Positions 42,637-52,342 of a stretch of DNA of 64,000 bases are shown here, piece by piece. The DNA is from an uncultured Verrucomicrobiae bacterium (lineage in GTDB: Bacteria > Verrucomicrobiota > Verrucomicrobiia > Chthoniobacterales > UBA10450). The position numbers and the translations under genes were made by a program. Location: the NCBI GenBank assembly GCA_963840305.1, contig CAWIYE010000003.1, positions 134,739 to 198,738 of the forward strand, in the 5' to 3' direction. Numbering within the stretch: the first letter of the stretch is position 1; each line of letters starts with the position of its first letter. A model generated the notes under the pieces. It saw nothing but the letters and a program-made list of their open reading frames with translations. It was not told the DNA's origin and did not search any database.

Positions 42637-44096
<1,460 letters not shown>

Positions 44097-47482: not shown

Positions 47483-47556
47483 CGGGCTGTAGTTCAGCTT
47501 GGTAGAACGCTTGAATGGGGTTCAAGAGGTCGTGGGTTCAAATCCCGCCAGCCCGA
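47483..47556 (+). tRNA. tRNA-Pro (anticodon GGG), no encoded CCA
   Basis: Manual cloverleaf: acceptor CGGGCTG/CAGCCCG, D arm GTTC-AGCTTGGTA-GAAC, anticodon arm CTTGA-ATGGGGT-TCAAG, T arm GTGGG-TTCAAAT-CCCGC. Confidence 0.85.
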
Positions 47557-48836: not shown

Positions 48837-49586
48837 CTACAACGCGCCAAGATATAAGATCCGGCCGCATTGCTCGCAGTTGACGATTTCCTTTCCCGCT
48901 TTGACCCGCGCTGCGGTCGCCGTCGTTACTTTCATGTGGCAACCGGTGCAAACACCGTGCTCGACGGCGACGATCGCAGCGTCGCCTTTACTGTTGAACA
49001 GGCGCTCGAACTGGTCGAGCAAATCGGCGTCGATCTTAGACGCAAGCGCTTCCCGCTCATTTTCTAGTTCTCGCTGCTGCGTTTCCAGCGTTTTGGATTT
49101 CGTTTCGAGATCGCCTAATTGCCGTGAAATTGATTCCTTGGTTGCCCGCGATGCTTTATCCGCCGCTTCAAATTCGGCTTTGAGCTTATCGGCCTGGATC
49201 ATCACTTCCAGCTCTTCATCCTCCAGCCTTCGGATTTCATTTTCGTACCGCTCAATTTCGTGACCGATCGCCTGAAACTCATCATTCTTGCGGGTCTGAT
49301 ACTGCTGGGTTTTGAGACGCGATATCGTTTCGGTCCGCGTGCCTACATCGAGCTCCAATCTCTTGCGATCAATTTCAAGCTGCCGCCCCTTTTGCTTCAG
49401 GACCTCAACGCCAGCTGTAGTCGCGGCCAGTTGGGATTCGAGATGATTACGTTGCAACGGCAGTGTTTTGATCTCAGTCTGAATCTGTCTGATCTTTTGT
49501 TGTCGATCTTGAAGAACGAGCAGTTGTTCCAATTCAGAATGCACGCGCGCTCCAACGTATTGATTCGGTGGAGCGGCGTCAATCAC
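48837..49586 (-). CDS. Coiled-coil protein with a C-terminal C4 zinc ribbon (COG1579-type)
   Basis: A long heptad-rich region, then CTGCHMKV...NCEQCGRILY. Confidence 0.7.
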   Translation of the reverse strand: MIDAAPPNQYVGARVHSELEQLLVLQDRQQKIRQIQTEIKTLPLQRNHLESQLAATTAGVEVLKQKGRQLEIDRKRLELDVGTRTETISRLKTQQYQTRKNDEFQAIGHEIERYENEIRRLEDEELEVMIQADKLKAEFEAADKASRATKESISRQLGDLETKSKTLETQQRELENEREALASKIDADLLDQFERLFNSKGDAAIVAVEHGVCTGCHMKVTTATAARVKAGKEIVNCEQCGRILYLGAL

Positions 49587-50368
49587 TGCCCGCCGGACCC
49601 AATTTGATCGAAGGCATTGAGGACTTGCTCTGGCCGGGCGCGGACGGCGATGTTCTCCGTAAGATTGACCCAGCGAACCAAGCCGCTGGAATCAATTAGA
49701 AACTCCGCAGGTCGCGCAATGTCCGCGCCTTTTGGCCCCGCTCTGGGATGCAATACATCGTAACGGCGAATGACTTCGGCTTTGGGATCTGAAAGCAGCG
49801 GGAATGTGTAGCCGCGTTTTTGCGATTGCCGTCGGTTAATCTCCGGTGAATCGACGCTGATGCCGACGACGCGGATCCTGCGCGCATCGAAATCCGAAAG
49901 CCGTCGCTGAAAACTCCGCAACTCGGAGTTGCAAAGCGGTCACCAGAAGCCGCGGTAAAAAATCAGCACGACCGCTCTTGAGCCGGAAAGCAAATCCGCC
50001 AGGGCGACTGATCTTCCATTTTGATCGACCAACGTGAATTCCGGCGCCTTTTCCCCAACGCGCGGCGCCTGAGTGGAGAGCGGAACCTGGCGAAGGACGT
50101 AAAAAATTTCGTAACTAAAAACTGTGAAAAGAAACAGAGCGATCGCTGTGAATATCGAGCCGAAGATTTTACCACGATAACGCTGCGGCCTGCCAAACGC
50201 GCGAAAGAGGCCGAGGAGCAACAGCGAACCGCCAATTCCAAAGAGCAAAAGATTAGCCCAGGGAAAATCACGGGTGATTGGATATCGGGCGAAGAACTCA
50301 TAGGAGAACAATCCGCCGACGGCGACGACAAAACCGACCCAGATCGGCCAATTCCATTTCCGTTTCAT
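49583..50368 (-). CDS. Membrane-anchored AhpC/TSA (redoxin)-family protein with an in-frame TGA at the catalytic Cys position (selenoprotein candidate)
   Basis: ORFs 49940..50368 and 49583..49921 share one frame and are separated only by a TGA at 49940-49942. The joined sequence reads VVLIFYRGFW-[TGA]-PLCNSELRSF...GISVD, a U/C-x-x-C redox motif. The N-terminal half has about 4 TM helices. Confidence 0.65.
49912..49930 (-). promoter_or_regulatory. SECIS-like hairpin downstream of the in-frame UGA
   Basis: The mRNA reads UGA-ccgcuuugc-AACUCCG-AGUUG-CGGAGUU. This is a perfect 7-bp stem starting 9 nt after the UGA, with a 5-nt apical loop containing GU. Confidence 0.4.
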
Positions 50369-52342
50369 GTCGATCTTGCCGCCGCCATTCGCAAGATCCA
50401 GCGATACAGAACGAAAGTAATCACCGCAAAAGCGACGCCGCCGATGATTATTCCGGCAGTCTCGTACGCCGGGCCAACCACGGAGAGCGGGAAATCCTTG
50501 CCTGAAAACACCACGAGTGCCGATATGACAACTCCAATAATGCCCTCACCGACGATCAAGCCCGATGCCAGCAGCACGCCAAGCTGTTTGGTCGCTTCGG
50601 GCTTTGGCGTGCGATTAGCGCGCTGATCGAAAAACCAGCCGACGATTGCGCCGACGACAATCATCAACGTGCTTTGCGTGGGCAGATAAATTCCCAGACC
50701 CACGGCCAGCGGCGGAACACGCATGTGTTTCGTCGTGCGAGCCAGGATTTCGTCGAGCAGAATAATGCAGATGCCGATCAAACCACCCGTGCGGATCAGA
50801 CTCCAATCGATCTCACCGGTAATCACGCCTTGACCCAGCGATGAGATCAGGCCGGCTTGCGGCGCGGGCAATGGATGCGGACGAAGTTCAGCACCGGGTG
50901 CGCCGACGAAACCATAAGCGTGATTCACGAGATCGAGAATGGGTGGAATCACGAACGCACCTGCGACCACACCGATCACCAGCGCTACCTGTTGCTTCCA
51001 CGGCGTCGCATCCACCAGTTGTCCGGTCTTGAGGTCCTGGAGGTTATTGTTTGCGATCGCAGCCACGTTGAAGATCACTGCCGTTGTGAAAAGGGCGAAC
51101 GCCATGAGCGCCTTTCCTGCGTCCGGACCAACGTACGGTTTCACGCCGATCACGAGCAGCAGCGCCGCGCCGATCACCACTAAAATTCCAATACCTGAGA
51201 GTGGGCTGTTGGACGAACCGATCAGCCCGGCCATGTAACCGCACACCGCGGAAACGAAGAAGCTCATCAACACGATGTAAGCAACGCCGCCGATGATCAG
51301 CGTTGGCAGATGCGCGCCGAGCCCGCTGGTGTTGCCAAAATAACCGAGCAGCCAACCGATCGGCAGCATGCACGCCAACGTCGAAAACCCGACGATGCCG
51401 ATTGGAATGTCGCGCTCAGTAATCGGCAGCGTGTCGGCTTTGCCGGCTTTGCGCGCGCGCGACGCTGCCATCGCGCTCGTGAGGCCACGCGCGACCGGCT
51501 TTACCAGTTTAAGCAACGTCCAAATCGCCGAGACGCCGATCGCGCCCGCTCCGACGAAACGCACTTTGTGACTCCAAGTGCTTTGCGCGAGCGTGGCCGC
51601 GGCCGTCGTGACATCGCCGGCGATGCCCGAAAAATGCGGGACACCCCAGCCCCAGCCAATGAATGCGCCGATGAGCATTGCAATGCCGACGGACAAGCCA
51701 ACCAAATGGCCGATACCAAGCAGCGCGAACGAAAGAAAAAAATCGTAACCGCTGACCGCACCGCGTCTGCCGATCCGGAACGTCTGCGCTATATCCGAAG
51801 CGAATACTTGCGTGGCTACAATTACTGCGAACACAGCGGCAACGATTGATCCCCATAACACAGCCAGCAGACCGGAGCGGCCGTGTTCGATGTCGTGACG
51901 CATCCTTGGCCTCACCGCCGCTGCCGACCTTCAGCACTTCGGCACAGGCGACGCCTTCCGGATACGGCAAATCCGAAGTCGTGACCAACGCACGGCGCAG
52001 CGGGATTGAATACATCACGCCGAGAATTCCGCCGAGCGCGCAGATCCAAAACGAAGTCCAGAAAGGAAACTCCGTCCAATAGCCGATCATGATCAAACCC
52101 GGCAGCACGAAAATGATCGACGAGAGCGTGCCGGCGGCCGAGGCGACCGTTTGCACGATGTTGTTTTCCTGAATGGTCGCGTCGCGAAAACCGCGCAGGA
52201 TCGCCATCGAAATCACCGCCGCCGGGATCGATGTCGAAAAGGTGAGACCCGCCTTGAGGCCGAAGTACACGTTGGCCGCGGTGAAAACCAACGTGATGAT
52301 GACGCCGATAATGATGCCGCGGACAGTAAGTTCCTTGCGCAT
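50365..52342 (-). CDS. OPT-family oligopeptide transporter
   Basis: N-terminus RKELTVRGIIIGVIITLVFTAANVYFGLKAGLTF and a polytopic body. One frameshift near 51900 joins ORFs 51509..52342 and 50365..51915. Confidence 0.8.

Follow-up and report, generated by a model that had tools for sequence, protein, structure and literature searches.

Among the selenoprotein families predicted in prokaryotes by Kryukov, Zhang and Gladyshev is the peroxiredoxin-like (Prx-like) thiol:disulfide oxidoreductase family known as Prx-like 1, in which an AhpC/TSA domain (PF00578) carries a UxxC active site, U being selenocysteine (Sec). Predictions of Prx-like UxxC selenoproteins go back to 2004-2005, and marine metagenomes and deltaproteobacteria commonly contain them; a 2026 review gives WP_010940744.1 as an example of the class. 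Here we analyze a gene with these features from an uncultured Verrucomicrobiae bacterium (Chthoniobacterales; UBA10450). The gene lies on the minus strand at 49583..50368 of a stretch of 64,000 nucleotides, referred to throughout as the window (assembly GCA_963840305.1, contig CAWIYE010000003.1, positions 134,739 to 198,738 of the forward strand), and its reading frame is interrupted by one TGA. We put at roughly 0.88 the probability that 49583..50368 is a single selenoprotein gene, encoding a membrane-anchored Prx-like redox enzyme, and that the in-frame TGA stands for selenocysteine. The reading is based on strict conservation of the TGA in related genes, on Cys at the same position in more distant homologues, on signs of translation through the TGA and on a hairpin directly downstream of it.

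The coding sequence begins with an ATG at 50368..50366 and extends over 261 codons to a terminal TGA. An earlier note on this DNA had described two minus-strand open reading frames (ORFs), 49940..50368 and 49583..49921, that share one frame and are separated by a TGA; this description holds in all its coordinates, the sole break being the TGA at 49942..49940, codon 143. The joined product reads ...AVVLIFYRGFW-[TGA]-PLCNSELRSFQRRL...VVGISVDSP..., and the local sequence around the site would be ...VVLIFYRGFW-U-PLCNSELRSFQ.... The predicted Sec codon thus occupies position 1 of a W-[U/C]-P-x-C motif, of which the second cysteine, Cys146 (49931..49933, minus strand), is invariant in the homologue alignment. 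The placement of the UGA at the first Cys of W-C-P-x-C had also been proposed in the earlier note and agrees with the Cys found there in homologues. A single match to the Pfam AhpC-TSA family (PF00578; residues 104-233, 49670..50059; E 6.6e-33) crosses codon 143 and delimits the thioredoxin-fold Prx-like domain.

Conservation of codon 143 was followed in 161 sequences, comprising the window, 80 genome loci (from a scan with one genome per GTDB species) and 80 JGI soil-metagenome contigs. The genome loci are 63-90% identical in amino-acid sequence, derive from both short-read and long-read assemblies, and belong nearly all to metagenome-assembled genomes (MAGs) of Candidatus Udaeobacter, Chthoniobacterales or Verrucomicrobiota; together with the window they make up the Udaeobacter clade. 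The metagenome loci (L088-L167, for example L143 2992-3795) were fetched by a metagenome scan seeded with a group of 'peroxiredoxins' that bear Trp at the Sec position in public records, and they form a second Sec clade from soil, approximately 50% identical to the window protein and to the first clade. Codon 143 is TGA in 161/161 of these independent sequences, with 81/81 in the Udaeobacter clade including the window and 80/80 in the second clade. The terminal stops of the same genes drift (TGA 47, TAG 21, TAA 12). A protein search returned at least 100 close relatives (77-90% identity, 147-153 residues), and all of those retrieved end in ...FYRG[FY]W.

Full-length homologues that are more distant (47-58% identity) carry Cys at the Sec position, with the sequences YWCPLC in P0001, YWCPAC in P0010 and P0067, YWCIMC in P0011 and YVCPFC in P0002. 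The orthologue alignment that the earlier note had proposed as a check therefore shows Sec and Cys forms alternating at exactly this position. Such a Sec/Cys pair, with a TGA aligned to the Cys of homologues and coding sequence conserved on both sides, is the pattern by which bacterial selenoprotein genes are recognized. A further homologue, P0008, has Ser at the position (ASPFC). This protein is encoded at 8001-8945 of L087, on a contig of 7.3 Mb; its Ser gives the canonical peroxiredoxin S/T-x-x-C, so that the family as a whole spans UxxC, CxxC and SxxC forms.

The coding signal is much the same before and after the TGA. Among the 81 Udaeobacter-clade genes, nucleotide diversity at codon positions 1, 2 and 3 is 0.24, 0.16 and 0.51 upstream of the TGA and 0.20, 0.15 and 0.52 downstream of it. 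Codons 144-146 (Pro-Leu-Cys), which follow the TGA immediately and precede any possible restart, have diversities of 0.15, 0.07 and 0.60 at the three positions; Leu145 uses six codons, and Cys146 is TGC in 43 genes and TGT in 38. Each of the 81 genes contains exactly one in-frame stop, at a divergence reaching down to 63% identity. Because there is one in-frame stop per gene, because codon-position diversity is equal on the two sides, and because codons 144-146 are under purifying selection, this substitution pattern leads to the conclusion that the mRNA is translated through the TGA.

The published consensus for the bacterial selenocysteine insertion sequence (bSECIS) specifies a loop of 3-9 nucleotides (nt), an upper stem of 4-16 base pairs (bp), a distance of 16-37 nt from the UGA to the loop, and a minimum free energy (MFE) of -7.5 kcal/mol or lower; a G is required in the first two loop positions and is usually followed by G or U (PMC13188914). 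The candidate hairpin at 49930..49912 on the minus strand, AACUCCG-AGUUG-CGGAGUU, agrees with every one of these values. It starts 9 nt after the TGA and has a perfect 7-bp stem, its 5-nt loop AGUUG lies at nt +17 to +21 (16 nt from the UGA) with G-U at loop positions 2-3, and its folding energy is -8.4 to -9.0 kcal/mol. The earlier note had drawn attention to this hairpin, its GU-containing loop and its spacing as a fit to bSECIS geometry, and the comparison with the published values upholds that proposal.

Codons 147-152 (AAC TCC GAG TTG CGG AGT), which encode most of the hairpin, are essentially nucleotide-invariant in the 81 Udaeobacter-clade genes at codon degeneracies of 2-, 6-, 2-, 6-, 6- and 6-fold. 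Their synonymous entropy is 0.023 of the maximum, compared with a gene median of 0.70, and is the unique minimum in the gene; the flanking codons show normal synonymous variation. The longest run of positions conserved at 95% or more in the 81 genomes is 20 nt, begins 10 nt past the TGA and contains the hairpin, whereas the next longest run in the gene is 7 nt. The five core pairs CUCCG/CGGRG (conserved core CUCCG-AGUUN-CGGRG, 49914..49928) are formed in 161/161 sequences. All changes within them preserve pairing (U-G replaces U-A in 35 sequences and C-G in 2), and in the loop just the last nucleotide varies freely, as G, A or U; the outer two A-U pairs occur in the Udaeobacter clade only. The 15-nt core motif has no other copies in the 1.65 Mb read and always stands at the same distance after a TGA. 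When the same peptide was recoded at random with synonymous codons, 0.58% of 20,000 recodings folded as stably, and the terminal TGA of the gene is followed by no SECIS-like hairpin. The hairpin is under nucleotide-level constraint. An invariant element of 15-19 nt is a clean case of an RNA signal overriding synonymous drift within a coding sequence.

A simple bSECIS filter was also applied to the window, where it was passed by 3 of the 63 in-frame TGAs that have long open frames on both sides. Of the two that lie elsewhere, one is where the upstream gene genuinely terminates. The other, a bSECIS-like TGA at +29494, was rejected, being antisense to a real 373-aa gene and having a low-complexity translation.

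Several explanations dispense with selenocysteine by denying either the TGA or its translation. The earlier note had allowed that the assembly is noisy and that the true codon might be TGC or TGT, in which case the gene would encode a Prx-like protein of the usual Cys-containing kind. One likely error, if not more, is indeed present: an insertion of 1 nt at 51896 puts the adjacent OPT gene out of frame when it is set against four intact orthologues. The TGA, however, is shared by 80 independently assembled genomes, short-read and long-read alike, and by 80 JGI metagenome contigs, and more than 100 database proteins terminate at exactly ...FYRG[FYH]W. With TGA in 160 independent assemblies, sequencing or assembly error is excluded as a practical matter, its chance being negligible. 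Genome-wide reassignment of TGA was rejected as well, since the codon is the ordinary stop of 14 of the 26 long ORFs in the window and also ends the selenoprotein gene itself. If the TGA were instead a genuine stop, the locus would be a decaying pseudogene or would yield two polypeptides, of which the first is a membrane fragment and the second, initiated anew at TTG 49921, a C-terminal half-domain. Public records do split the gene in this way (148 aa + 112 aa in L083), and the TTG, at codon 150 the nearest candidate restart, is found 7 codons past the TGA in 72 of the 81 genomes. Yet it is TTA in four genomes, and the 81 genes have no conserved restart codon after the TGA; the split would sever the thioredoxin fold at its active site; and codons 144-146, located after the TGA but ahead of the TTG and containing the invariant Cys146, are under selection at the amino-acid level. 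A pseudogene, for its part, would not keep the large excess of variation at codon position 3 over positions 1 and 2 that is seen here both before and after the TGA, and no extra stops or frameshifts have accumulated in 81 genes diverged to 63% identity. The two-gene arrangement, one of the outcomes by which the earlier note would have considered its proposal refuted, is excluded on these grounds, and we regard a genuine stop of either kind as very improbable.

A different objection accepts that the TGA is translated and turns on what is inserted, since the evidence above shows translation through the TGA, not the identity of the inserted residue. UGA could be read independently of SelB by a near-cognate tRNA as a standard amino acid (Trp, Cys or Arg), with the hairpin acting as a general stimulator of read-through in a lineage without Sec machinery. 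A handful of results weigh against our reading here, or against the hairpin as its signal. Searches for selA, selB and selD (tblastn with the E. coli proteins from NC_000913) and for tRNA-Sec (ARAGORN) detected none, either in the window or across 1.59 Mb of DNA flanking the 80 genome and 80 metagenome loci, although these flanks are the same syntenic neighbourhood in many genomes and absence there says little either way. Rfam covariance models (release 15) gave no match to the hairpin on 49860..49990 (131 nt), at the gathering threshold or at E up to 10, as is expected for elements as short and with as little common sequence as bacterial SECIS; on the window at the gathering threshold they found two tRNAs only. 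The second clade keeps the SECIS core with a stem of just 5-6 bp, having lost the outer A-U pairs, the near invariance of the hairpin leaves no double-sided covariation for this fold or for the competing one, and the competing fold is the MFE structure of the free RNA. The lack of sel genes and tRNA-Sec in the window and syntenic flanks and the lack of an Rfam SECIS family match would both suit read-through: Ca. Udaeobacter and its relatives may lack SelA, SelB, SelC and SelD altogether, and UGA and hairpin would then direct a programmed read-through, independent of SelB, in which the redox-active site receives a standard amino acid. However, the UGA falls on the redox-active residue that opens a CxxC-type motif, a position held by Cys in homologues, which is the signature of Sec/Cys pairs, and Trp or Arg there would destroy the motif. 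The hairpin geometry and G-U loop fit the SelB-type consensus. Neither clade shows any change to TGG or TGC (TGA in 161/161), a strictness that points to a need for the stop codon as such. Read-through with a standard amino acid is, in our estimation, quite improbable. The competing fold would leave the protein a selenoprotein and change only the working SECIS, which would become a stem UG[C/U]AACU / AGUU[G/A]CG with a CCG triloop and with lower stems that pair the UGA itself. In its 11-bp form, UGCAACU-CCG-AGUUGCG, it reaches -12.7 kcal/mol, compared with -9.0 kcal/mol, and it is the structure chosen by ViennaRNA and, for the Udaeobacter clade, by RNAalifold, where a single pair seems to covary (C-G 42, U-G 35, U-A 3). 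That pair, however, is broken in 34 of the 80 second-clade sequences (C-A 31, C-U 2, U-U 1), where the lower stems collapse. The fold also departs from the consensus, its loop beginning 13 nt past the UGA (less than 16) and having no G in the first two loop positions, and its 5' arm starts 6 nt past the UGA, in a stretch that the ribosome covers while the UGA occupies its A site; with the first 3-12 nt taken away, as they would be by a ribosome, the AACUCCG-AGUUG-CGGAGUU hairpin becomes the MFE structure. We infer that the alternative fold is less likely than this hairpin, and a selenoprotein that depends on it strikes us as unlikely.

In the reading that we prefer, selenocysteine insertion directed by the AACUCCG-AGUUG-CGGAGUU hairpin, UGA codon 143 would be read as Sec. 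By analogy with established SECIS biology, the hairpin would act as a bacterial SECIS and recruit SelB with Sec-tRNA(Sec) to the ribosome paused at the UGA. The product would be anchored by three N-terminal transmembrane helices, with its C-terminal peroxiredoxin-fold domain facing the periplasm. Sec143 may then serve as the attacking nucleophile towards a peroxide or disulfide, Cys146 would resolve the product as a selenenylsulfide, and a thiol donor would reduce the selenenylsulfide in turn.

The N-terminal anchor (50093..50344, minus strand) consists of three hydrophobic segments by hydropathy, at residues 9-27, 40-58 and 68-92, rather than the approximately four helices given in the earlier note. 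The AlphaFold2 model of the Cys homologue P0001 (pLDDT 90.4, pTM 0.85) likewise has three membrane helices (7-29, 38-60 and 70-94), followed by a Prx fold; in a Foldseek search the model came closest to Bcp4, BcpB, AhpE and PrxQ (target-normalised TM-score 0.78-0.88). Between helices 1 and 2 lies a short loop, predicted to be external, with the nearly invariant motif P-x-TRDFPW. The N-terminus carries a charge of +3, loop 1-2 a net +1 and loop 2-3 +5, and because of this distribution we predict an N-in, C-out topology, which places the redox domain outside the cytoplasmic membrane, probably facing the periplasm.

The active site is W-U-P-L-C, with Sec143 and Cys146. In a HMMER alignment to 2cx3, Cys146 aligns with the peroxidatic Cys of BCP/PrxQ proteins, Sec143 with the Thr/Ser of their P-x-x-x-T/S-x-x-C motif, and Arg139 falls at its Pro; the invariant R219 lies within one residue of the catalytic Arg of BCP/PrxQ/AhpE. 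Judged from this alignment, the site is a thioredoxin-like UxxC within a peroxiredoxin scaffold, and the protein is distinct both from canonical peroxiredoxins and from TxxU enzymes of the PrxU type. The canonical peroxiredoxin motif is absent, and no NCBIfam cut-off at equivalog or subfamily level was reached. Thus, the term peroxiredoxin-like in the earlier note is apt for the AhpC/TSA domain and for the Prx-like fold of the homologue model, and does not extend to the active-site motif, which is UxxC.

The gene is flanked on the same strand by an OPT-family transporter gene upstream (50365..52342) and by a CT398_CC/Zn_ribbon_9 gene downstream (48837..49586). Both neighbours overlap it by four bases. 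The TGA stop of the OPT gene overlaps the selenoprotein ATG in ATGA (50365-50368), and the GTG start of the Zn-ribbon gene overlaps the terminal TGA of the selenoprotein gene in GTGA (49583-49586). The OPT gene lies upstream in 78 of the 80 loci and the Zn-ribbon gene downstream in 75 of the 80. Because of the four-base start/stop overlaps, translational coupling of the three genes is suggested, and they constitute a conserved, probably translationally coupled unit in Udaeobacter. The OPT family includes peptide and glutathione carriers. In the window the OPT gene is frameshifted by an extra A at 51896, outside any homopolymer, when compared with intact 672-aa orthologues in L073, L001, L002 and L083; the insertion divides it into overlapping ORFs, 51509..52342 and 50365..51915, and means either that the assembly is wrong at this point or that the gene is a true pseudogene in this genome.

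The OPT/Zn-ribbon synteny was not seen in the second Sec clade or at the loci of Cys forms. The second-clade context is unrelated and comprises phosphatases, followed by ftsK and a probable prfB on the opposite strand (from ORF translations in L143). Because the synteny is specific to the Udaeobacter clade, gene context does not define the function of the family; it is lineage-specific and only weakly informative in this respect. Two tRNA genes, tRNA-Val(CAC) at 42637-42711 and tRNA-Pro(GGG) at 47483-47556, lie downstream of the locus, and the pair occupies the same relative position in most orthologous loci, so that synteny extends over several kb. Additionally, three loci come from MAGs labelled Nitrospirota (L022, JBLMXH010000183.1), Alphaproteobacteria (L052, CAWFVV010000001.1, 1.3 Mb) and Dormiibacterota (L064, DATIOX010000118.1). 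They carry the order OPT / Sec-Prx-like / Zn-ribbon / ychF at 72-88% amino-acid identity to the window, which suggests that these contigs are mis-binned or mislabelled.

The family is systematically mis-annotated, in two ways. Many public records split the gene into two unnamed or 'hypothetical' fragments. Furthermore, fourteen JGI 'peroxiredoxins' from contigs of 1-2 kb, which are among the full-length hits of 47-58% identity, show Trp at the Sec position, as YWWP.C (P0003-P0007, P0012, P0014, P0015, P0018, P0019, P0023, P0059, P0064 and P0114). In the DNA of 80 loci from this Trp-bearing group (L088-L167), the codon is TGA, not TGG, in 80/80. Evidently the gene caller had gone over to genetic code 4 on such short contigs, which produced the false Trp. 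Such a code-4 artefact could mimic reassignment of a stop codon, and surveys of soil metagenomes for selenoproteins and for reassignment would both be distorted by the mis-annotation of this family.

Published work describes Candidatus Udaeobacter as a lineage of high abundance in soil, and our literature search found no paper on selenoproteins in Udaeobacter or Chthoniobacter. Conservation of a selenoprotein in 80 or more species-level genomes would imply the use of selenocysteine across the largely uncultured Udaeobacter group. If Sec is used, one of the most abundant bacterial lineages in soil would need selenium for a membrane-anchored Sec enzyme that faces the periplasm and is translationally coupled to an OPT transporter, and the availability of selenium in soil would be tied to the ecology of this lineage.

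Several known systems share parts of this architecture. The TlpA/ResA/CcmG oxidoreductases have a W-C-x-x-C-type motif, an N-terminal anchor and a thioredoxin-fold domain predicted to lie outside the membrane, as does the protein described here. They differ in having a single anchor in place of three helices, the fold of the present protein is closer to that of peroxiredoxins, and its gene context contains no cytochrome-maturation genes. Membership was rejected by score, as the top NCBIfam match, ResA, reached 54.1 bits against a cut-off of 170, DsbE 20 against 359 and TlpA 17.8 against 230. PrxU (NF040737) and the SelL-related family (NF040769), selenoproteins or relatives with a Prx-type fold, were both weak NCBIfam matches and were rejected likewise (34 against a cut-off of 270 and 48 against 120, respectively); in PrxU, moreover, Sec occupies the peroxidatic position (TxxU), whereas here it occupies the first position.

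At the RNA level, the closest comparison is with the experimentally defined SECIS of E. coli fdhF, which also forms a hairpin directly 3' of the UGA within coding sequence and presents a G-U in its apical loop approximately 20 nt away. The residues are G23 and U24 in fdhF and G21 and U22 here, and the minimal fdhF element starts 11 nt past the UGA as compared with 9 nt at this locus. In contrast to fdhF, the hairpin described here has no bulged U, has a pentaloop in place of a tetraloop and shows no sequence similarity, and its binding by SelB is a prediction.

The best PDB sequence matches are BCP/PrxQ and AhpE proteins (A. pernix BCP 2cx3, S. solfataricus Bcp4 3hjp and M. tuberculosis AhpE 1xvw; E 2e-19 to 1e-15), which are also the best fold matches to the P0001 model (TM-score 0.78-0.88). 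Their motif P-x-x-x-T/S-x-x-C corresponds to R139-x-x-x-U143-x-x-C146 in the window protein, with Arg in place of Pro and Sec or Cys in place of Thr/Ser. These enzymes are soluble, whereas the protein described here is membrane-anchored, and within its own family P0008 (SPFC) has the canonical arrangement.

The class to which the protein belongs is Prx-like 1, defined by a PF00578 domain (here E 6.6e-33) together with UxxC rather than TxxU, here W-U-P-L-C. In common with that class, the present family has the AhpC/TSA domain, many Cys homologues and a small SECIS hairpin directly after the UGA with a G in its loop. The three-helix anchor with its P-x-TRDFPW loop was not found in the class descriptions consulted, and the source is aerobic soil Verrucomicrobiota (Ca. 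Udaeobacter) in place of the marine and deltaproteobacterial sources reported. The class itself is known. What is new is a subfamily within it, distinguished by the three-helix anchor, by conservation that is very wide and strict, both within Ca. Udaeobacter/Chthoniobacterales and within another clade from soil, and by an unusually invariant SECIS.

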